Source of the DNA: Candidatus Delongbacteria bacterium
Lineage (GTDB): Bacteria > UBA4055
Assembly: GCA_016937995.1 (NCBI GenBank)
Contig: JAFGVM010000081.1
Span: forward strand, 1 to 34,942
Direction of reading: 5' to 3'
DNA: 34,942 nt
Part shown: piece by piece, positions 7,746 to 30,142 of the stretch
Layout: every line of letters starts with the position of its first letter
Position numbering within the stretch: position 1 is the stretch's first letter
The notes under the pieces: generated by a model
Databases searched by the model: none
What the model saw: the letters and a program-made list of their open reading frames with translations, nothing else
Told to the model about the DNA's origin: nothing
Translations under genes and position numbers: made by a program

Positions 7746-10544
7746 ATGCAGAGTAACTACCGGTTTTTATATCTTATAATTCTATTGGTAGGCAGTATTT
7801 TTGCTACAGAAGTGGAGTTGTCAGAGGTAAATGAAATATTAACAAATAAGCACAAAGAGATCGGGAATGGCTTGATAAAAAATGTGCAGATTGCTCCGTT
7901 TAACGAAAATTTAATGAGCTTTGAAGTTCACTATGCGGATGATAAAACCATCAAGTTATTTTTGTATAATATCGAGGAAAAATCAATTTATCAGATCCAG
8001 TCTGCAAACTACTCCACTGGCAAAAAAAGCAAGAAAAGATATTATTTAAAAGATCAGGGTGTATCATGGCATCCAACTGAGAATTGGTTTACATTTTACG
8101 GAAATGGTCATTTGAAAAGAGATCAGTTATTTCTGTGTAAAGTTTTAGTGCCACAACTTATAAACGACTTCTCGGTTAAAGGTTACATGTTAGACATAAG
8201 GGAGAAGAAAAATACAAGGAGCTATTATAAGCAGCCATGTTTTGATTCAGAGGGAAAAAACATATTTTTTTCAAGAAGGATCGAGCTGAAAGATAAAAAA
8301 GCAAGATATAACAGAACGTATAATATCGCTTATATTGAGAATGTTATTTCAAAAGAGGAATCAAATTTTTCAGATATAGAATTTAAAACTGCAGTTGAAA
8401 AGAAATTTGATCAAATTTCTCCGATCTGTTCACCTACTGATCCGAAACTTGTTGCATATATTTCTTACAGGAACATGAAAAAAAGAGGTGGTGAATTCTA
8501 TCCTGATTATTCTTTGAATATCGTGGATATTTCCACCCAGGAAATAGCTGTGGTTGACAAAATGGACGGATATGATGATTACCCGTTCCAATGGAGTCCT
8601 TCAGGTAATTATATATTTTATTACAAGGCACTTTCACTTCTCATGACCAAGCAGGAATTCATTGATGATAAGATGAACGTGTTAAACCTTAAATTCGCAA
8701 AGGTAACGAGAGAAGGCAACACTATTAAAACATTTGTACAGTCCAATCCTAAAAGTGATATATTGCTGGATGACATAACCGGTAAATTTCACGGAATAGC
8801 TTTTTTGAACGATGAAAATATTCTGGTTTCAAAATATGATCCTATGGAAGCAATTACTTTAGTTGATATTCAAAAATGGAAAGATCTGGATAAGAAATAT
8901 TCAACTAAGCTTGATTTTAGTAATGATACGGATTACCCTATACTTGTTGGAAGTAAATTATTTTTTGTTTCTTATGAACTTGTCAATGACAATCTGGTCA
9001 TTGCCGCAAATTTTTCAGATGTGAAGATAAGTCTGCCTGATGGTCAATCAAGGATATTAACTTCAGCTTCTGCGATAGAGGAACAGATAGAGAAGTTCAA
9101 TGCTAAAATTTCTGAACATAATAAAGAAATTGAACCTATAGAAAAAGAATTGTCACAATTACAAAGTTCTCTTGATGCCGAAAATAAAATATTCACTGAA
9201 CTTACATCTCAAAAAGAAAAATTATCTTCCGTCAGGGATACTGAACTAGCTACATTGAACAGTTACAGAGAGAAAAAATCTTCAGGTCTTGAAACAGAAC
9301 AGGAGATAAGTAAACTGGTTACTCAGAAAGCGGAAATAGAAGCTCAAATAAAAAGTAATCAGGAATTAGTTGATGTTGAAAATGAGAAGATAAGAAAATT
9401 ATTACAAAATAAATCATCATTACAAGCTGATAAGAATACATCATTGGAATTGATCGTTCAATATAAGAGTAATCTAGCTGAAGTGTTACTGGCTGAAACA
9501 GAGATAACGACTATAAAGAACAATATAAACAAAGCAAAATTGGAAATTTCAGAAATAGAAAACAGCATGACAAAACTAAATGCTGAAATTGAAGAAGAGA
9601 ACAATCTTAAATCCAAGTTGGAATCAGATCTTGCAGCAAAAAATACTGAGAAAGCCAAAGCACGAGGGAATATAGATAATCTAAAGATCGAAAAAGCTAA
9701 AACTCTTGAATCGGAAGGAATGCTGGCAAGTTTTCAAAATCAGCTAAAAGAATTGAAAACAAAATCAACTAATATAGACAGCGAGATTAAGAAACTTCAG
9801 GATGACTTAAATTCAGAGAACTCTGCTTTAGCAAATAATGAAACTGCTATGAACTCAAAATCAAAAGAAAAAAGTGATCTTATAGCTTCAATTGAAAAAC
9901 TGAATAGAGATAAAACAGCTTCTGAATCCAAAAATATAGAAGAGCAGGTAGCATCATTACAAACAAAGCTTGATCAGTTGAATACTGAATTGGAAAAAAC
10001 GAATGATAAGCTTGGTACTTTTACATCTTTAGTTGCAGAGGAGAATAAAGCACTTGAAACCAGCAGGAAGACTTTAAAGGAGAAAAACGAAGAGAAACTT
10101 ACTTATATTAAAGACATCGAAAATTTAAAAACTGCTAAAGCACAAGCAATTAAAGATGAAACTTTAGCTAAGCAGAAAGAGGAAGAAGAACTTGCTGCAA
10201 AGAAGGAAGCAGAAGAACTTGCTGCAAAGAAGAAAGCAGAAGAACTTGCTGCAAAGAAGAAAGAGGAAGAGGAAAAATTGCGAAAAGAAAAAGAGGCTGC
10301 TGAACTTGTTGCAAAACAAAAGAAGGAAGCTGAAGAACTTGCTGCAAAACAAAAGAAAGAAGCTGAAAATCTTACACAAAAAGATACTGCTACTTCTGAA
10401 GAGGATGAATATTCAGATGATGATGAATACGTTGATGAGGATGAATACGTTGATGAGGATGAATATATAGAAGATGAGGAAGACTACTTTGACAATAATA
10501 CTACAACACCTACAACGTCAGGATCCACAAGGAGAAGAAGATAA
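7746..10544 (+). CDS. Secreted TolB-like beta-propeller with long coiled coil, K/E/A repeats and acidic tail; function unknown
   Basis: Signal peptide; PD40-like motifs (VSWHPTE, PCFDSEG, PICSPTD, FQWSPSG); heptad-rich residues ~445-805; EELAAKK repeats; DEYVDE repeats. Confidence 0.75.
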   Translation: MQSNYRFLYLIILLVGSIFATEVELSEVNEILTNKHKEIGNGLIKNVQIAPFNENLMSFEVHYADDKTIKLFLYNIEEKSIYQIQSANYSTGKKSKKRYYLKDQGVSWHPTENWFTFYGNGHLKRDQLFLCKVLVPQLINDFSVKGYMLDIREKKNTRSYYKQPCFDSEGKNIFFSRRIELKDKKARYNRTYNIAYIENVISKEESNFSDIEFKTAVEKKFDQISPICSPTDPKLVAYISYRNMKKRGGEFYPDYSLNIVDISTQEIAVVDKMDGYDDYPFQWSPSGNYIFYYKALSLLMTKQEFIDDKMNVLNLKFAKVTREGNTIKTFVQSNPKSDILLDDITGKFHGIAFLNDENILVSKYDPMEAITLVDIQKWKDLDKKYSTKLDFSNDTDYPILVGSKLFFVSYELVNDNLVIAANFSDVKISLPDGQSRILTSASAIEEQIEKFNAKISEHNKEIEPIEKELSQLQSSLDAENKIFTELTSQKEKLSSVRDTELATLNSYREKKSSGLETEQEISKLVTQKAEIEAQIKSNQELVDVENEKIRKLLQNKSSLQADKNTSLELIVQYKSNLAEVLLAETEITTIKNNINKAKLEISEIENSMTKLNAEIEEENNLKSKLESDLAAKNTEKAKARGNIDNLKIEKAKTLESEGMLASFQNQLKELKTKSTNIDSEIKKLQDDLNSENSALANNETAMNSKSKEKSDLIASIEKLNRDKTASESKNIEEQVASLQTKLDQLNTELEKTNDKLGTFTSLVAEENKALETSRKTLKEKNEEKLTYIKDIENLKTAKAQAIKDETLAKQKEEEELAAKKEAEELAAKKKAEELAAKKKEEEEKLRKEKEAAELVAKQKKEAEELAAKQKKEAENLTQKDTATSEEDEYSDDDEYVDEDEYVDEDEYIEDEEDYFDNNTTTPTTSGSTRRRR
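10185..10367 (+). repeat. Intragenic tandem repeats: 3x27 bp (EELAAKKxx) and 2x33 bp (ELxAKQKKEAE)
   Basis: GAAGAACTTGCTGCAAAGAAG units start at 10185, 10212 and 10239; 33-bp units at 10302 and 10335. Confidence 0.9.
10404..10475 (+). repeat. Intragenic 4x18 bp repeat (DEYSDD/DEYVDE/DEYVDE/DEYIED)
   Basis: GATGAATACGTTGATGAG exact at 10422 and 10440, variants at 10404 and 10458. Confidence 0.9.
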
Positions 10545-11846: not shown

Positions 11847-13211
11847 ATGTCTGAAGAAAAAAATAACAACTCAAAAAGTGGATACAAGGATGTCCTAAAT
11901 AACCGAGAAGGAAGTGAAGGTCCAAGTATATATGGTAGCTTCAGAAAAAGAATCCTCGATGAAAATGAAAAGCAGATATACGATAAGGTTCAGGACGGAG
12001 CTTCAACTGGTTATAATTTTGAAGGAGAAAGTACTTTAGAAGGTGATTATATACGTAAAGTTGATAAGAAAGTTGTCGTTTTGTATGTTGTTATATCAAC
12101 GATCATATTAACCTCTCTCATAATATTCCTTTACAGCTTAATCCCGGGGCCAGAAGATAAATTCAAACAGTACAAATCTTTAAGAGCTGAATTTGAAAAA
12201 TTAAGCGTTAAAATGAGCCAGAAAAGAAAAGAAATTGAAACTATTGTGCTGGAATTAAAATCTAATGAAAAATATAAAGATCTTGAACTTGAAGATTCCG
12301 AAGGCAGCATTCTATCTGATCAGCAGTTGGAAACTCTTTCAGAAAAAGCAGAAACTGAAGATGATAAAGGGATCAAATCCAAGATTAATACTATTGTGCA
12401 AACGGATAAGGAATTAAAAGAGCTTCAGAAGAATATCCAGTCTAAATATAAAGGTCTTGAAGCACCTGAGGTAATGACAGATGAGATCGGCCATGAAGAG
12501 ATAGCACTAAGCTATTTAATAAATACCAAAGGTCTTGATCATACAGAAGCGTTAAATCTGCTGGAAAGTGTCAATATTTTTGATTATGCATATGAGGGAT
12601 TATATGTTTGGAATTTTTATGAGGATGGTTTTTATGGATCATTTATTACAAAGGGTGAAGCCGATAAAACTCCAAATGAAATAAAAAAATTAGCTAAACG
12701 GGCTTTCAAAGCAAGGATTAATGCATTACTTACTGAAAAGCAGAAATTAACTGAAAAGATAGAGATGCTGGAAGCTGAGAACAGAAGAAATAATACTAAT
12801 AAAGAAATCGATGACTCTCCGGTTGTTGAGAAAGAAGATACCGATGATACTCCTGCTGATACATATGAAGAAAAAAATATAGTTGAAGTTAAAGCGATCA
12901 ACTACAAATTACTCAGTTTTGATTACGCTCAAAAGAAAGGTGTAATAACTGAGTCTATGTGGGATGGAGTCAAGCTAAACAATTCAAGAGGAATCGATTA
13001 CGCTTCTAAAGTGGATTTCTCAGTGACCGATAATCTTATAATTAAACCTAAGCAATTTGGTCTTTCAACTTTTACAGAAGTTTATGTTTTCCCGAAAAGT
13101 TTAGTCGCCTCAGGATATATAGACGTGATAAAGAAAAATACAGAATGCAGAATAGAATTTAACGGCCTAGATAATTTGAACGGTAAAAATTTATTGATCA
13201 TTGCAAAGTAG
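11847..13211 (+). CDS. Hypothetical single-pass membrane protein with coiled coils
   Basis: Long ORF; TM segment VVVLYVVISTIILTSLIIFLYSLI; coiled-coil segments flanking a globular YVWNFYEDGFYGSFITKG region. Confidence 0.75.
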   Translation: MSEEKNNNSKSGYKDVLNNREGSEGPSIYGSFRKRILDENEKQIYDKVQDGASTGYNFEGESTLEGDYIRKVDKKVVVLYVVISTIILTSLIIFLYSLIPGPEDKFKQYKSLRAEFEKLSVKMSQKRKEIETIVLELKSNEKYKDLELEDSEGSILSDQQLETLSEKAETEDDKGIKSKINTIVQTDKELKELQKNIQSKYKGLEAPEVMTDEIGHEEIALSYLINTKGLDHTEALNLLESVNIFDYAYEGLYVWNFYEDGFYGSFITKGEADKTPNEIKKLAKRAFKARINALLTEKQKLTEKIEMLEAENRRNNTNKEIDDSPVVEKEDTDDTPADTYEEKNIVEVKAINYKLLSFDYAQKKGVITESMWDGVKLNNSRGIDYASKVDFSVTDNLIIKPKQFGLSTFTEVYVFPKSLVASGYIDVIKKNTECRIEFNGLDNLNGKNLLIIAK

Positions 13212-23803: not shown

Positions 23804-25858
23804 TTATATCCCGTATTCATCTAACGGTATGTTCAACTCTTCAGTACCTGCAACAGCAAATCGCCCGTTCCTGATTATATCAAATTTCTCTCCATCTTCT
23901 GCAATAGCAGTAATGAATTCAATATCCTCGTAAGGAAGTGTTATATCAGTATGAACATTTGTATAAGCTTTTGAATAATCCTCTTTTCTGTTCAAGGTCA
24001 TTGAATTATCTCTTGCAGTGATCTCTTTATTGTCAATAGGGTTGTAAACAGCCATATCTTCAGTGTGAGAGAAGCACGTATCACCAATAGCAAAATGAGG
24101 TCCCATTTTTTCTATTATTAGAACTGGGAGGACATCCAGTATCTTATACTTTTGAGCAACTACATAAGCTAAAGTATTTGTACCGATTGCAAATTCACCG
24201 ATTGGTAATGTCTTATGTGGGAAGATAAGATTCTCTTCGATAAATTTCTTATTTTTAGCTTCTTCATCATAGTTCGCACAGCTGTAGTCAGAGATGAATC
24301 CATCTTTAAAAGTCAGGTTGAGTTCTTTGTATTTCAAACCGCCCAGGAAGGTTTCTTTAATATGAAGAGTTCCATTAGTTCCTTCAAGTTGAGGACTTGT
24401 AAATACTTCACCAACAGGAATGTTCACATCCGCTCCGCAGTTACAATAATTTGTCTGCTTGGAAGGATCTGTCAGCTTCTGATTCTTGATGATAATATCT
24501 GTAAGGTTACCATTCTGACCTTTGATGTGTACTTTAGTAGATCTGTCAAGAACATCAATGATGTTCTTTTGAATTACTTCATATCTTTCACTTTCAAGCA
24601 TGTTAATTTCAAGAGTATCTTCAAATATAGCTTCAAATTCTCCATCGATCTCTGGTGAAGGGAACGAAATTATACAGAAACTATTTTCAGTCCTAGGCAT
24701 ATATTTCTGTTGAGTTTGAGAATTTGTCATCATCATCTTCTGGTATATTTTCTGTTGTTCAGGATCTAATGACCATGCTGAATCTTTATTTTCTGGAGCA
24801 AAAGGTTTCTCTCCAAATTTTGTTACAGCGATCACACCTGAATACTGCTTGGTATATTCATCAGTATTTTCCCATGCTATTTTTGTTTGTTCTATAGACT
24901 TTTCAGCCAGTGATTCATCAAGGAACGATGCAATTGAGAATTTATGATCATGACCTAATTGTTTGTTTGCAGAAGTTGAAGCAGGAGATCTAACGATCGA
25001 GTCTAAATTATATTTTTCCTTAAGAAGTACGATCACTCTTTTTATCAATTCTTCCTGACCAATCTGACAAACAATCATAACGGTTGATTTCATTGACATA
25101 TCTTTATTGCTCTTAACGAATCCCTGCTCGTATGCTTTAACTATCTGAAGAGCCAAAATATCAAGTTTTTCTTTTGAGTATGATTTTAAAAAATTAGCTG
25201 TCTTGATCTCATTTTCGGTGATGTACGGGTCGAACTTGAACATGTATCTTAGATCGGATGGATCAGAATCGAGGATCACATCCTTATAGTACGTCAATTC
25301 TTTGTCAAACATTGCTTTTATGCCAATTATTCTTGCTTCCAAGTTCATTTGTTGCTGATATCTTCTCACTATTTCAGAGATAGATCTTGTTTCGATATTT
25401 AAAGTTCCATTAAAATAGTTGAAAAGTTCTAAAAAAAGCTTATTATATTTGTCCATTTCAAAGATCTTGTGTTCAAAAGAATAATTCCTGTAAGATCTGT
25501 ATATCTGATAAAGCACATAGAAAATTTTACCGATCTGCTCTCCGAAAATTTCTACAGAATAAACAGGATTAGCATAGGATCTTCCATAGTTTTCCGGCAA
25601 TATTTCTTCACTGAAACCATTGAATGTCTTTTGAAGTTCTTCAAAAGATTTATTATTGAAGAAATCATCATTGATTTTTTTTTCGTGCTCATAAAAATAT
25701 ATTATTAGATCAGCACACTTTATAAGAAAAGTTTTAAATTTCTCATCAATAGTTGTTACAGGTAATTTTAGAGCTATTTCTTTAATCAATGAGATATTTT
25801 TTTCATAGCTGTCCAGGATAGGTGCATTTATCTCTGAATAAAATTGTTTAAAATCCAT
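23804..25858 (-). CDS. M29-family aminopeptidase (long form with N-terminal extension)
   Basis: Start moved to ATG 25858 (SD TGGAG); NIPVGEVFTSP, GEFAIGTN, EKMGPHFAIGD, HTDIT. Confidence 0.9.
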   Translation of the reverse strand: MDFKQFYSEINAPILDSYEKNISLIKEIALKLPVTTIDEKFKTFLIKCADLIIYFYEHEKKINDDFFNNKSFEELQKTFNGFSEEILPENYGRSYANPVYSVEIFGEQIGKIFYVLYQIYRSYRNYSFEHKIFEMDKYNKLFLELFNYFNGTLNIETRSISEIVRRYQQQMNLEARIIGIKAMFDKELTYYKDVILDSDPSDLRYMFKFDPYITENEIKTANFLKSYSKEKLDILALQIVKAYEQGFVKSNKDMSMKSTVMIVCQIGQEELIKRVIVLLKEKYNLDSIVRSPASTSANKQLGHDHKFSIASFLDESLAEKSIEQTKIAWENTDEYTKQYSGVIAVTKFGEKPFAPENKDSAWSLDPEQQKIYQKMMMTNSQTQQKYMPRTENSFCIISFPSPEIDGEFEAIFEDTLEINMLESERYEVIQKNIIDVLDRSTKVHIKGQNGNLTDIIIKNQKLTDPSKQTNYCNCGADVNIPVGEVFTSPQLEGTNGTLHIKETFLGGLKYKELNLTFKDGFISDYSCANYDEEAKNKKFIEENLIFPHKTLPIGEFAIGTNTLAYVVAQKYKILDVLPVLIIEKMGPHFAIGDTCFSHTEDMAVYNPIDNKEITARDNSMTLNRKEDYSKAYTNVHTDITLPYEDIEFITAIAEDGEKFDIIRNGRFAVAGTEELNIPLDEYGI

Positions 25859-25880
25859 ATTATTTCTCCATTTTAAATTA

Positions 25881-25906
25881 AAATTCCGAAACAAGTTCAG
25901 AATGGC
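25881..25906 (+). repeat. REP-like palindrome, copy 3 (degenerate)
   Basis: AA-ATTCCGAA-ACAAG-TTCAGAAT-GGC. Confidence 0.7.
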
Positions 25907-25939: not shown

Positions 25940-26689
25940 TTAAAATGCGGTAGTATAAATAACACGGACCTCTCTTCCAAGAGTTTCTCCAGTGTTTTTA
26001 AGAATATCTTTCACGTCGAACTCAAGATGCAGAACATTCTCAAAAGACCATCTTAATCCAATATTCAAGTATCCGTTACCTTTATTATTTCCTTCTTTAC
26101 TATTGTCATTCCAGGCAAAATCGTATTCGCAAAGCAAATTAACAGTGGGGACTATGCTCTTATCGAATCCGATGAACATATTAATGTTATCATCACCCTC
26201 GTATGGGTCTTCTTCAGTAACACAATAGTTAACTCCCCAATGGAAGCCTAAAGTCCCGAATTGTCCTTCAGCAACATAATAATTTTTGCTTAATACAAGA
26301 TAAAATCCTTTTGATTTGATCGCAAATCTGTCTCCAAGCCATTGTCCTGCTCCCTGGCTGTCAAAACCTACAGAAACATTTGGATAATAAAAATCCTCTT
26401 TAAATGCCAGGAACTGAATTCTCATCCCAGGTTGTCCATTCCATGCAGGAGTCTGATCACCTATAATGTTGGATGTACCATAACTGACACCAAAAAAGAA
26501 ATTCTCAAACACACCAATATTAACTTCTCCCATCATACCGTTAGATGCATAAAGTCTTCCACCTATTTCGATCTCAGCTCTGTTTAAAGAATATGCGGTT
26601 GGTGTATCAATGAGTCTTTTTGTGAATGCATCCTGACTTAACAGTACATTAACAGTGATTAAAGCAAAAATAAAGAAGATCTTTTTCAT
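25940..26689 (-). CDS. YjbH-like outer-membrane beta-barrel protein
   Basis: Signal peptide; LIDTPTAYSL, GFYLVLSKNY, GYLNIGLRW; terminal Phe (VRVIYTTAF). Confidence 0.7.
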   Translation of the reverse strand: MKKIFFIFALITVNVLLSQDAFTKRLIDTPTAYSLNRAEIEIGGRLYASNGMMGEVNIGVFENFFFGVSYGTSNIIGDQTPAWNGQPGMRIQFLAFKEDFYYPNVSVGFDSQGAGQWLGDRFAIKSKGFYLVLSKNYYVAEGQFGTLGFHWGVNYCVTEEDPYEGDDNINMFIGFDKSIVPTVNLLCEYDFAWNDNSKEGNNKGNGYLNIGLRWSFENVLHLEFDVKDILKNTGETLGREVRVIYTTAF

Positions 26690-26711: not shown

Positions 26712-26739
26712 AAAAAAAAGGCACGATATTTCGTGCCTT
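26712..26739 (-). terminator. Intrinsic terminator after the GlmL-like operon
   Basis: AAGGCACGA-TATT-TCGTGCCTT with an A run on the left (U tail on the minus strand). Confidence 0.85.
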
Positions 26740-26748
26740 GAATTAATT

Positions 26749-27873
26749 CTATTTTTCGATCATTTCAATGTTAGCTCTTGGGATCAATACATCTTTACCA
26801 TCCACATTAGCTATCATTACTCTGACCCAAGTTCCTGATTCAACTTTGTGAAGTTCTACAGGAAGGCTTACTACAGTTCCAAGTTTTCCAAAATAAGGTG
26901 CTCTAATGATCCTGATCTGGTCACCGGTCTCAATTCCAGTCTGTGCATAATCTTTAGACGTATTATCATCGATATTCTCGTTATGCGTAATGATTATTTC
27001 AGGTCTCATAACACCTGCTCTGATCTGTGTAGCACCGTTAATTGATGCTTTATAGCCTTCGTACTTTTTTAGAAGATCAAATGTTCTTTGTGCCATTGGG
27101 ATAGTTCCGAAACCTTCTGTAAGGATCAATGTGAATCCGATATCCTCGTGACCGGTTATAGCAACACCCAGATCTCTGCCCAGAATATCCTTGATGTCCT
27201 GGTATTCGAAACATCCACTGATAATTCCTTTTACACCAATTTCTTTAGATTTCTTCAATGCTTCAGGTGTTACTTTAGATCCTGCTACAATTACTTTTCC
27301 TTTCATTGCTTCAGTGATCATTGTCTCATTCAGAATTGTTTCAGGTGAGGATGAAGCCATCATAATTTCACCCTGAGTTTCTCCACCAAGACCAATGATC
27401 CCCTGTATATGAACACCGGTAGTTCCCATGATCACACCTTCTTTTGGTATTTCCTCAAGAACCTTACCATCTACATAAGCATCAATTTCTACAGGAATAG
27501 CAGGAGCGTTAAAAATAACCTGTCCGGTAATTCCGGATATCTGACTTACTGTGCCGGTAATAGGTGCCTTATATTCGCTCTTAAAGAATCCGAAAAATCC
27601 TTTACTTTGAGCAACTAATTCGCCTTTTGTTACCTGATCACCCTCCTTTTTTAACATTGCCTCTGGTAATTCGCTTGCTTTTCCTAAAGCTAACTGACCT
27701 GCAACATTGATAGGGTATACTTTGCCGGGTAATTCTGTTTTTGCCACAATAGTACGGGCATCTATCATATCATCTTTTTTTACTAATACGTCACCAAGAA
27801 GCGGTAGTTTTCGGGTTTTTTCGATCTCAGTCTTTGCTGCAACTTTTAATCCCGGTGTATATGCATGAGCCAT
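26749..27873 (-). CDS. Hypothetical protein cotranscribed with the GlmL-like gene (barrel-sandwich hybrid segments, C-terminal KOW-like domain)
   Basis: SD AGGAG; KKEGDQVTKGELVA..KAPITGTVSQI (biotinyl/lipoyl-like fold pattern); GDQIRIIRAPYFGKLGTV (KOW-like). Confidence 0.8.
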   Translation of the reverse strand: MAHAYTPGLKVAAKTEIEKTRKLPLLGDVLVKKDDMIDARTIVAKTELPGKVYPINVAGQLALGKASELPEAMLKKEGDQVTKGELVAQSKGFFGFFKSEYKAPITGTVSQISGITGQVIFNAPAIPVEIDAYVDGKVLEEIPKEGVIMGTTGVHIQGIIGLGGETQGEIMMASSSPETILNETMITEAMKGKVIVAGSKVTPEALKKSKEIGVKGIISGCFEYQDIKDILGRDLGVAITGHEDIGFTLILTEGFGTIPMAQRTFDLLKKYEGYKASINGATQIRAGVMRPEIIITHNENIDDNTSKDYAQTGIETGDQIRIIRAPYFGKLGTVVSLPVELHKVESGTWVRVMIANVDGKDVLIPRANIEMIEK

Positions 27874-27909
27874 AAAACTCTCCTATTAAAAAACTTTTAA
27901 AATTATTAG

Positions 27910-29826
27910 TTAAACACCATCTTTATCAGACTTTGGAACATAATTCTTTGAAATATCCCACTCTCCAAGCATTTTTACACGATCTTTAAAATCTTTAGAG
28001 AATTTGAATGGTCTACCTCTTGTATCTATGATCAGACCAACCACTCCACCTCTTAAATTTCTAGTTACAGTTTTACCTTTTCCAGCTCCAACATCGAAAC
28101 CTTTTGCAGGTTCTATAACAAATTTCACTTCTTCATCGTATGGGAAATCATATCTGATAACCTTATTAGATTCGATCCATTCATTTAATTTAGTTCCATC
28201 AGGAAGTTCAGCTGTGATCTTTACAACTTCTTTGCCTTCTTTGATCTTTCCTACAGGACAAATGCTCATAGCCAAATGAATCAGACAGTCCTTATCGAAA
28301 ACTTCCATAGCAGCTCTTTCACAACCAGGAGCATCAACTTCAGATAGAACTCCGAGTTGAGGCATCATGAAGATCGAATCTACTGCCAGTTCTGTAATTC
28401 CTTCAGGTAGAAAAGCGTCAACGAGCATGTGTGCGGACTGACTTCTAAGAGGAGCATGAGAAAGAACACCTCCTGAACCTACAAGCATATCAAGCTCCAT
28501 CATGTTTATGATAGAGTCACTTGTATCAGTATCACTGAATGCATCAGCAATACCTTTTTCCTGCTGAATACCCTTTAATCCAACTGCGAAAGCTTTATGC
28601 TGAATGAAGGAGAGTCTTAAAGCCTCTCTTGCAATCGCCTGCTCAACATCAAGATCCTGTTTTGACTGAGGAATAGTTGTAGGACGGATCATTTTATTTC
28701 CTATTCCGTTCCTAAGTTCAGATTCATCCATTTCAAAGGGAACCCATCTCATAATATCATCTAAACCAGACTCCAAAAGAACATTTGAAACAGAATATGA
28801 CATTCCCAGATTAGCAGATACAGTTCTGTTGAATTTCAGATGTTGTTTACCTTCTTTATCCTCAAGTTTAAATACAGAGAAAATATCAGTCGTAGCACCA
28901 CCAATATCTACACCGACAACATTTTTATTCTGCAATTCACCGATCTTTTTTATGATCAGGCCAACTGCTCCCGGTGTAGGCATAATGGGTGCATCAGTCC
29001 ATTTCATTAATTTATTATAACCAGGAGCCTGTTGCATAACATGTTCCATAAACAGGTCATGGATCTTGTCTGAAGCAGGTCTTAAATTTTCATGTTCCAG
29101 CGAAGGTCTAAGATTAGGTACGATACTTAACGCTGTATCATTTTCCAAGATCTTTTTAATATCTTCCTGAGCTCTCTGGTTCCCTGCATATATAACAGGA
29201 AGTGCATAGCCTGCACCAAGTCTTGCAGTCGGTCTTGCTGATTTAACAAGTTCAGACATTCCTATAACATGTTTAGGTTTTGCCTGATCCGTTTCTCCGG
29301 CAATTAGTATCATATCCGGTCTTAATGCTCTGATCCTTTCAATCTTTTCATGGGGAAGTCTTCCATCGTTGATCGCCAATACATCCATAACGATCGCACC
29401 TGCACCCAAAGCTGCTCTCTGAGCAGATTCGGCTGTCATTCCTTTAACTACTCCGAATACCATCATCTGAAGACCTCCACCTGCTGAAGAAGTGGATATG
29501 TATATATCACATCCTTCTTCGATGCCTTCAGAATTTACCGTTTTTCTCAGAATTTGCTCATTAGCTACAAATGTTCTCTTCTGGTTGTAATATTTACTAC
29601 CTTTTGCAGCATCTGACTTATAATATTCAGTAGCTAATTCTTCAAGTTCCATAATTGCATTCAGTACACCTTTAGTAACATCTTCAAATGGAGCTTCAAC
29701 AGTGGTAGGGGCTTCACCCCTGACAAGCTGACGATATTCATCGCCAACTTTTTCGATCAGGATCGCTTTTGTCGTAGTTGATCCGCAATCGGTTGCAATG
29801 ATCGTTGTGACTTCTTGGTTGGACAT
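27910..29826 (-). CDS. GlmL/MutL-family (glutamate mutase L-like) ASKHA ATPase
   Basis: TDCGSTTTKA, APTTVE, SSAGGGL, AALGAGA, VIYAGN, MPTPGAV, VDIGGATTDIFS, GSGGVL; SD GAGGT. Confidence 0.88.
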   Translation of the reverse strand: MSNQEVTTIIATDCGSTTTKAILIEKVGDEYRQLVRGEAPTTVEAPFEDVTKGVLNAIMELEELATEYYKSDAAKGSKYYNQKRTFVANEQILRKTVNSEGIEEGCDIYISTSSAGGGLQMMVFGVVKGMTAESAQRAALGAGAIVMDVLAINDGRLPHEKIERIRALRPDMILIAGETDQAKPKHVIGMSELVKSARPTARLGAGYALPVIYAGNQRAQEDIKKILENDTALSIVPNLRPSLEHENLRPASDKIHDLFMEHVMQQAPGYNKLMKWTDAPIMPTPGAVGLIIKKIGELQNKNVVGVDIGGATTDIFSVFKLEDKEGKQHLKFNRTVSANLGMSYSVSNVLLESGLDDIMRWVPFEMDESELRNGIGNKMIRPTTIPQSKQDLDVEQAIAREALRLSFIQHKAFAVGLKGIQQEKGIADAFSDTDTSDSIINMMELDMLVGSGGVLSHAPLRSQSAHMLVDAFLPEGITELAVDSIFMMPQLGVLSEVDAPGCERAAMEVFDKDCLIHLAMSICPVGKIKEGKEVVKITAELPDGTKLNEWIESNKVIRYDFPYDEEVKFVIEPAKGFDVGAGKGKTVTRNLRGGVVGLIIDTRGRPFKFSKDFKDRVKMLGEWDISKNYVPKSDKDGV

Positions 29827-29886
29827 TAATTACCTCAAAATTTATGTTAATTAATACATTTTACATAACTTCTTAATCAAGTAAAG

Positions 29887-29915
29887 AATATATTTATAAT
29901 CAGGGATTTTAGCAA
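29887..29915 (-). promoter_or_regulatory. Putative sigma70 promoter of the GlmL-like operon
   Basis: Minus strand TTGCTA-N17-TATATT. Confidence 0.6.
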
Positions 29916-30142
29916 GATTGTTTTTATTTTTTAATTACAATGAATATGACAGGATGTTGATATTACGGTGCGAGATGCTACCGTATCTGTTTTCAAAGAA
30001 TTTTTAGATTGATTAATCAAAATTATTTGATCAATTTATGTTCATTATAAATCAGGCTGAAGAATGTATTGAGATTAAAATTTAGGTAGAGTTGTATACT
30101 GTTTTGATCATTAGATCAGGGTTTGAAAGAAAGGGAAAAGAG

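Follow-up and report, generated by a model that had tools for sequence, protein, structure and literature searches.

A long GlmL/MutL-family ATPase and its three-domain partner mark a widespread, undescribed and probably membrane-associated ATP machine

Introduction

The closest described relatives of the ATPase considered in this study are GlmL/MutL and Or-4, which belong to the same Pfam family (MutL, PF13941) and have the same ASKHA fold and nucleotide motifs. A comparable arrangement is found in the diol dehydratase reactivase (DdrAB/PduGH), where DdrA is an ASKHA ATPase joined with a swivelling β/β/α domain in the same chain. The nearest solved structures by Foldseek are those of the Hydantoinase A, oxoprolinase and acetone carboxylase β type (PF01968). 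The best matches by VIA-align are FtsA and PilM of the PilM-PilN system, which likewise go together with genes of bitopic membrane proteins. In how the system may work, not by homology, ECF transporters and MsiK-type shared ABC ATPases are also similar. They have few soluble ATPase units for many dispersed modules beside catabolic genes, and their membrane subunits are small, with roughly 5–6 transmembrane (TM) helices each. The gene pair reported here is located at positions 26749–29826 of contig JAFGVM010000081.1 (34,942 nt; assembly GCA_016937995.1) of a Candidatus Delongbacteria bacterium, and this whole contig is called the window. Both genes are on the minus strand. The gene at 27910–29826 encodes a long-form GlmL/MutL-family ASKHA ATPase of 638 amino acids (aa), and the gene at 26749–27873 encodes a partner protein of 374 aa.

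A preliminary description of the window regarded the pair as a self-contained two-gene operon. Both open reading frames (ORFs) were verified. The comparison across phyla gave a different picture of their context, in which eight genes form a conserved set, four of them encode membrane proteins, and the pair is its soluble core. The likely client of the pair is not a soluble enzyme but a membrane module composed of DUF6754 and three further proteins, called c3, c5, and c6. We regard the pair as the mark of an undescribed ATP machine that is widespread and probably membrane-associated.

Results

Family searches were carried out with at least 8,000 candidates each for the ATPase and the partner. 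The partner family is composed of 3,564 clusters at 50% identity (E up to 1e-3). A partner relative is encoded in 596 of 599 candidate species-level genomes, at least 596 overall. The identities between phyla are roughly 60% for the ATPase and 54% for the partner. Titles of the partner-bearing records name Zixibacteria, Ignavibacteria, Marinimicrobia, Lentisphaeria, Synergistia, Terriglobia, and Eisenbacteria. In the phylum of the window itself, the partner was found in all of 16 genomes, and most of them have fused paralogues (frames of about 980–1040 aa). The 80 best-scoring of the 596 loci were then surveyed by calling and clustering their ORFs and re-mapping them by tblastn. At least 2 kb of upstream sequence was present in 71 loci, and in 54 of these the ATPase gene lies within 2.5 kb upstream of the partner gene on the same strand. 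The other 17 loci are mostly titled WOR-3, Stahlbacteria or Sumerlaeota. The ATPase was found elsewhere in 8 of 10 genomes with an unlinked partner.

Fusions of the two proteins were also observed. Among the longer relatives of the partner, 49 of 51 clusters are ATPase-partner fusions of roughly 990–1005 aa, with a few shortened forms of 659–719 aa. The fusions cover 99–100% of the partner except for one cluster (88%), and their identity is 45–51%. The sampled ones retain the AHAY(S/T)PGL motif internally, behind a variable linker. The genome of the window itself has a fused paralogue of 981 aa on another contig (C1, L002:1465–4410, plus strand), in which a PF13941 ATPase is followed by a long-form partner. 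This paralogue has an insertion of about 80 aa in its partner part and is without the YTPGL motif; its gene is located directly 3′ of a histidine-kinase fragment and a LuxR-type response regulator.

The structure prediction of the complex, which had been proposed as a check in the preliminary description, gave an ipSAE of 0.77 for ATPase and partner (0.77, 0.77, and 0.78 in the runs), whereas the best of three controls gave 0.00. Among solved complexes, 116 of 157 reach this mark, and among mismatched pairs 2 of 215; these counts are a rough guide here because custom alignments were used. At least 80% of the contacts were common to the runs, and the predicted local distance difference test score (pLDDT) of the partner was at least 83. 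On the ATPase side the predicted interface is made of residues 372–392 (NKMIRPTT) and 457–460. On the partner side it is made of TEGFG (252–256), ATQIR (281–285), the KOW motif (323–328), and PRAN (365–368). The confident part of the predicted interface coincides with invariant motifs of both chains. Residue 6 of the partner and residues 16 and 311 of the ATPase, the latter on the two phosphate loops, are also in the interface list. They may touch each other; the pair itself is not listed as a contact. The prediction supports the binding of the two proteins as a heterodimer, and ATPase and partner probably bind each other physically.

The neighbours of the pair were collected across phyla, as had been suggested earlier, and a conserved order of eight genes was found in many of them, namely c7-c4-ATPase-partner-DUF6754-c3-c5-c6. 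The four-gene module DUF6754-c3-c5-c6 is often present in two copies. In some lineages c4 comes after the partner, or the module is located upstream on the opposite strand. In 24 of the 80 loci, all four genes of the membrane module accompany the ATPase and the partner; DUF6754 was found in 30, c4 in 35, and c7 in 20 of them. In two loci (L020 and L079) the partner stop codon overlaps the DUF6754 start. Genome-wide, DUF6754 (PF20539) was matched in 35 of 36 partner-holding genomes (16/16, 5/5, 10/10, and 4/5) versus none of 14 model genomes, which include that of E. coli. The pair is very probably the ATP-using part of this DUF6754 membrane system. In a single record (P0255, 707 aa) the partner runs into an FN3-DUF6754 protein without a stop codon, which reflects a genuine fusion or else the loss of the stop codon.

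In the genome of the window, the pair, the modules, c4, and c7 are scattered over five contigs. Two DUF6754-c3-c5-c6 modules are located on contigs C17 (58–4178) and C40 (62–4172), c4 on contig C69 (4224–4619), and c7 on contig C14 (12870–13343), all of them on the minus strand. The DUF6754 proteins of this genome have an N-terminal extension of about 350 aa. The c7 protein is about 150 aa long with two TM helices, and c4 is about 130 aa long. Hydropathy and K/R counts, which give a crude topology, suggest that DUF6754 has an outer N-terminal domain, which is of FN3 type by PDB profile, and a cytoplasmic core of about 190 aa with one TM helix before it and another at the end. By the same measure, c5 would have an outer domain of about 210 aa between two TM helices, whereas c3 and c6 would be polytopic, with 5–6 and about five TM helices. 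The c proteins of the set match no Pfam family, and c3 and c6 gave no Pfam transporter match at E values up to 1. PDB profile searches returned FN3 alone for DUF6754 and nothing for c5. In the ESM Atlas, DUF6754 found its own family only and c6 gave no usable match. By hhalign, no relation was detected between DUF6754 and c5 or between c3 and c6.

Variants of the pair were found in some lineages. Five Bacillota-titled loci (L018, L044, L045, L071, and L075) have two tandem ATPase-partner pairs, in which one partner is longer (450–470 aa). Four of these loci have c7 and c4 interleaved with the pairs; L018 has c4 only, and the c7 of its genome is further upstream (L138). The tandem pairs suggest a hetero-oligomeric engine in those Bacillota lineages. 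Between ATPase and partner, records titled Ignavibacteria or Zixibacteria have an additional gene, c8, whose product of about 260 aa matches no family and has a C-terminal hydrophobic segment (L022, L026, L030, L054, L057, L061, L062, L064, L068, L072, L080, L081, and L085).

The copy numbers of modules and pairs differ strongly in one Bacillota genome. Its ten DUF6754 matches represent eight four-gene modules, one module truncated at the end of its contig, and one fragment, but just two ATPase-partner pairs were found in it, located with c7 and c4 at a separate locus (L071). For four of the eight modules, the immediate same-strand neighbours include genes of amide-bond hydrolases (Amidohydro_3, gamma-glutamyltranspeptidase, M20, and DUF885). 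Taken together, the module flanks (42 proteins scanned) have seven amidohydrolase genes as well as genes for a GntR regulator and a hydantoin-type racemase. In a second Bacillota genome, an M20 peptidase gene is located two genes 5′ of the cluster. Because few engines are combined with many modules and catabolic neighbours, the pattern can tentatively be read as one energising unit that serves several uptake modules of different substrate specificity.

Glycine-cleavage genes are located 5′ of the cluster in 10 of the 80 loci, and a lipoate ligase gene 3′ of it in L020. Rfam scans of 21 module or pair loci detected only one T-box, one thiamine pyrophosphate (TPP), and one flavin mononucleotide riboswitch, none of them directly before a module. 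Three lysine riboswitches were found in eight partner-holding genomes, and none of the three precedes a module. In one Bacillota genome (G019), a TPP riboswitch (L109:28–127, plus strand) stands at the head of a gene run on its own strand, made up of two ORFs without annotation (337 and 280 aa) and the genes for ThiE and a HAD hydrolase. The run continues past a gap of 444 nt into an amidohydrolase gene and a DUF6754 module.

The ATPase matched PF13941 with 397 bits (E 1.4e-118; gathering cut-off 27 bits) over residues 9–513, corresponding to model positions 1–449 of 450. Its scores against the more specific NCBIfam models were all below the cut-offs. They were 204.5 bits for NF040745 (GlmL, equivalog; cut-off 475), 204.4 bits for NF040744 (Or-4, GlmL-related ornithine degradation protein; cut-off 600), and 141.9 bits for TIGR01319 (glmL_fam, subfamily; cut-off 204.05). 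Pfam and NCBIfam yielded only MutL and Hydantoinase matches, and the ATPase is in no transporter-ATPase family known to them, ABC or other. A sequence search of the PDB gave no match. The structure model (pLDDT 72.2) has an ASKHA fold. The motifs DCGSTTTK (13–20), DIGGATTD (307–314), and GSGG (450–453), which we take to be the phosphate-1, phosphate-2, and adenosine motifs of this fold, are invariant in all 38 homologues. The mean column identity of these homologues, which come from several phyla, is 63%. Residues 514–638 form a β-rich extra domain that is modelled confidently (pLDDT blocks 89–95). Its motif GG..G...D.RGRP is conserved, as G593, G594, G597, D601, R603, G604, R605, and P606 are invariant in the 38 sequences. 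This C-terminal domain, which the preliminary description had already pointed out, is not present in genuine GlmL.

As a positive control, the NF040745 profile was searched against 201 Bacillota genomes. Genuine GlmL (at least 475 bits; 475–698) was detected in 49 of them, in frames of roughly 445–500 aa. A separate long class has frames of about 600–655 aa and scores of 180–255 bits, and the window ATPase falls there. Eight genuine GlmL loci were returned, and all of the six inspected have the order GlmS-GlmL-GlmE with a GlmL of 462–474 aa and no partner. The window ATPase shares 30% identity over 408 residues with one genuine GlmL. In contrast to genuine GlmL, it is about 170 aa longer, its long form was not seen between GlmS and GlmE in the window and the 80 loci, and it co-occurs with the partner and DUF6754 modules. 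The overall result indicated that the ATPase is a long, distant paralogue of GlmL that is without every GlmL-defining feature testable here. In three Bacillota genomes (G133, G174, and G209), frames of about 1,240 aa correspond to the first 307–309 positions of the GlmL model (about 254 bits) and show a weak match to its tail. These frames are a further fused or extended architecture of the PF13941 family.

The partner gave nothing above the cut-offs of Pfam or NCBIfam and no PDB match by sequence. Its structure model (pLDDT 85.8) is composed of three domains, a barrel-sandwich hybrid (residues about 8–150), a swivelling β/β/α domain (about 153–297), and a KOW/SH3-like barrel (about 311–374). 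The match to the RnfC_N/NqrA_N barrel-sandwich Pfam model, 23.3 bits, is below the cut-off of 25.6. In structure comparison, the barrel-sandwich domain resembles NqrA (4u9o_A; Z 7.5, root-mean-square deviation (rmsd) 2.8, 67 residues aligned) and the carrier domain of urea carboxylase (Z 7.3). The swivelling domain resembles that of Enzyme I (2wqd_A; Z 9.6, rmsd 2.6, 105 residues aligned), rifampin phosphotransferase (5hv1_A; Z 8.9), RraA (Z 8.4), and the pyruvate kinase C-domain (Z 8.1), and the last barrel resembles NusG (Z 8.2). These Z-scores are middling and may be read as fold assignments only. The swivelling domain gives a structural basis to the analogy with the diol dehydratase reactivase drawn in the preliminary description. 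The invariant positions of the partner include Y5-T6-P7-G8-L9, QGI.G.GGE, GVAITG.E, TEGFG, NGATQIRAGV.RPE, IR.P.FG, and PR.N.E. No invariant His is present in the alignment of 36 partner sequences, and a phospho-histidine relay like that of the phosphotransferase system is therefore unsupported.

The signals around the pair were compared with those described earlier. A Shine-Dalgarno-like motif precedes both starts. It is GAGG 5′ of the ATPase ATG, and AGGAG (27884–27880) 6 nt 5′ of the partner ATG, within the 36-nt spacer of the two genes (27874–27909, minus strand). An intrinsic-terminator-like hairpin (26718–26739, minus strand) begins 10 nt past the partner stop codon, with a 9-bp stem including five G-C pairs, a loop of four, and a following T-run; the terminator reported at 26712–26739 was recovered in this form. 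The promoter proposed at 29915–29887 did not hold up in the same way. It lies in the 265-nt divergent intergenic region 5′ of the ATPase (29827–30091, strand unassigned), and its -35/-10 boxes are a 9/12 match. There are 23 such matches in 5.5 kb versus 20.2 ± 4.4 in shuffled sequences. The proposed promoter is not distinguishable from chance and is therefore given no weight. The Rfam scan found no family anywhere in the window, and the window therefore has no cobalamin riboswitch. A profile scan of the window proteins found no mutase gene, neither GlmS nor GlmE, in agreement with the earlier account.

Discussion

The observed gene pair, its conservation, fusions, synteny, and co-occurrence with the membrane genes can be brought together in one model. 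We propose that ATPase and partner are an obligate heterodimer that serves as the shared ATP engine of a multi-subunit membrane system driving uptake, and we estimate the probability of this whole explanation at about 0.5. The heterodimer would be cytoplasmic. The invariant motifs of the partner would pack against the ATPase, and the N-terminal (S/T)PGL segment would lie beside the phosphate-binding loops. The dimer would be the soluble, ATP-using part, and c7, c4, and one or more four-gene membrane modules would complete the system. It would dock on the cytoplasmic face of interchangeable, substrate-specific modules and, once docked, may drive the uptake of peptides, amino-acid derivatives or other nutrients. 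A bolder form of the proposal is rather doubtful. In that form the pair would be the engine of an unrecognised class of primary active importers. Instead of an ABC, P-type or rotary ATPase, an ASKHA ATPase with a barrel-sandwich/swivel/KOW partner would power interchangeable DUF6754-c3-c5-c6 modules. Each module would be adapted to its own substrate (a peptide, an amino-acid derivative or a sugar), and the modules would have this engine in common, as in ECF transporters. More specifically within this form, the (S/T)PGL segment would enter the nucleotide cleft and gate ATP turnover, or it would be phosphorylated.

Several points weigh against an uptake engine. No recognised transporter fold or family was found among the proteins of the system in Pfam, NCBIfam, and PDB profiles, and c3, c5, c6, and the DUF6754 core match nothing there. 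To our knowledge, no ASKHA ATPase energises a transporter. The Bacillota genomes are related, and their catabolic neighbourhoods count as about one observation. Outside Bacillota, the flanks of 23 module loci (73 proteins) are mostly housekeeping genes. The exceptions are one module preceded by genes for a transaldolase, an FGGY kinase, and a fucose-isomerase-like protein, a c7-c4-module cluster preceded by an enolase-superfamily gene, a module beside Amidohydro_1, and a further one beside TldD/PmbA, proline dehydrogenase, and a decarboxylase. One partner-holding genome has no DUF6754 match, and 2 of the 10 genomes with an unlinked partner have no PF13941 match; all of these are metagenome-assembled genomes whose completeness is not established. 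The surveyed loci, being the best-scoring ones, are not a random sample.

Other explanations must be weighed against the same data. The pair could belong to an envelope-assembly, secretion or scaffold machine, in which an FtsA/PilM-like, membrane-docked actin-fold ATPase organises or remodels a membrane complex that handles surface protein, lipoprotein or polysaccharide, instead of driving solute uptake. This is unlikely on balance, even though the best structural matches of ATPase residues 4–505 by VIA-align are FtsA (Z 13.5 and 13.4) and PilM (Z 11.8). An outward FN3-type domain on DUF6754, with its long extension in the genome of the window, would suit such a machine. ExbB/ExbD/TonB/TolB genes after the pair in about 10 of the 80 loci, and signal peptidase II or Wzi genes beside four modules, would suit it as well. 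However, the Z-scores are generic for the ASKHA fold, since sugar kinases, ParM, and DdrA are at 10–11. Bacillota also have the system, with many module copies beside hydrolase genes, and the conserved genes of the cluster include no secretin, pilin or known assembly factor. Pilus and divisome genes are missing from the cluster as well, and neither the partner nor the C-terminal domain has a counterpart in PilM-PilN and FtsA. Less likely again is a soluble catabolic enzyme that depends on ATP and resembles the hydantoinase/oxoprolinase/acetone-carboxylase type. Such an enzyme, not an engine, would act on a small molecule brought in through the membrane module, either by phosphorylating or by opening it. 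The top Foldseek matches are acetone carboxylase β (5svc_B, E 2.4e-8), N-methylhydantoinase (9h03_A), and acetophenone carboxylase (5l9w_B), with Hsp70s also matched, and the TM-scores of the hydantoinase/carboxylase-type matches are low (0.26–0.31). The Pfam match to Hydantoinase_A (PF01968) is marginal, as the whole protein scores 24.1 bits against a cut-off of 22.9 and no single stretch passes. The Bacillota modules do adjoin amidohydrolases and a hydantoin-type racemase. On the other hand, one or two pairs for up to eight modules with different neighbours do not fit a single substrate, and the high cross-phylum identity with invariant residues at the predicted interface fits a machine part better. 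No HyuB-like subunit is present among the conserved neighbours. The position of the swivelling domain that matches the phospho-histidine of Enzyme I is presumably not conserved, as judged by eye against the motif of that enzyme.

The current database name of the ATPase corresponds to a reactivating chaperone for an adenosylcobalamin enzyme encoded elsewhere, for example methylmalonyl-CoA mutase (MCM), and we consider this very improbable. The PF13941 membership of the ATPase is in its favour, as is the match of the DdrA α chain (2d0o_A; Z 10.2, rmsd 4.6, 258 residues aligned), a reactivase in which ASKHA and swivelling domains are likewise combined. In addition, MCM is present in the genome of the window and in 44 of 51 partner-holding genomes, which also counts against the uptake engine. 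This co-occurrence has little weight because MCM was also matched in 8 of 14 model genomes. Besides, 7 of 30 partner-holding genomes have no MCM-family match, and one of these seven is without any B12-binding domain. According to one source (PMC10356863), MCM is served by its own G-protein chaperone. GlmE (PF06368) gave no match in the genome of the window, which is 97% complete, and was above the cut-off in none of 46 partner-holding genomes (0/16 and 0/30). No mutase gene is among the conserved neighbours of the 80 loci, and the inspected loci of genuine GlmL have a short GlmL between GlmS and GlmE and no partner. EutB was not found in the genome of the window by profile search. Lysine aminomutase (PF09043) and the diol dehydratase Dehydratase_LU (PF02286) were not found there either, which are weak absences as the controls of these profiles were silent everywhere. 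Looking for adenosylcobalamin mutases in pair-bearing genomes, as proposed earlier, gave a divided answer, with GlmE absent and MCM common; a strict co-occurrence with glmES, which the preliminary description had named, together with reactivation in vitro, as refuting it, was not observed. The B12 link of the pair is weakened. The earlier view of the pair as distinct, uncharacterised, ATP-dependent, and not a glutamate-mutase helper agrees with scores below the GlmL, Or-4, and glmL_fam cut-offs and with the GlmE result.

Compared with described systems, the pair may share with DdrAB the logic of an ATP-driven domain movement that opens a client. Unlike in DdrAB, the swivelling domain here is on a separate chain with barrel-sandwich and KOW-like domains, and a membrane module is the probable client. 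A DdrB-like subunit was not observed, and no dedicated search for DdrB was made. The likeness is one of architecture in trans and not of membership. The Hydantoinase A type differs from the pair in its HyuB-type partner, which has no equivalent among the conserved neighbours. ECF transporters and MsiK-type systems use ABC ATPases, whereas the ATPase here has the ASKHA fold and its transport role is putative.

A literature search, mostly outside subscription journals, found no paper naming DUF6754, PF20539 or PF13941, and none using TIGR01319, 'GlmL-like' or 'MutL-like ATPase' in this sense. The identity of roughly 54–60% between phyla for two soluble proteins suggests a central cellular job. 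Databases label the ATPase 'glutamate mutase L' or 'methylaspartate mutase', which gives a false hint of glutamate fermentation in many uncultured lineages. If an engine with interchangeable modules is the right reading, it would be a new principle of energy coupling in membrane transport. It would also help to explain nutrient uptake in the FCB group, PVC, Zixibacteria, Marinimicrobia, and related phyla, which are dominant in sediments and oceans.

Other genes of the window

The other genes of the window are housekeeping genes for tRNA synthetases, SurA/PPIases, BamD, RuvB, QueA, UvrB, and M20 and M29 peptidases. Just past the terminator of the pair, the gene at 25940–26689 (minus strand) encodes a protein of 249 aa with a signal-peptide-like start and a weak, sub-cut-off match to YjbH, an outer-membrane β-barrel. 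Two genes 3′ of the pair and on the same strand, the gene at 23804–25894 encodes a 696-aa protein. Its M29 aminopeptidase domain is limited to residues 342–679, and its N-terminal 340 aa match nothing. Two large ORFs without a Pfam match, at 7746–10544 (932 aa) and 11847–13211 (454 aa), both on the plus strand, are located within a run of SurA/PPIase, BamD (YfiO), and OEP genes. They may be unrecognised components of outer-membrane biogenesis.

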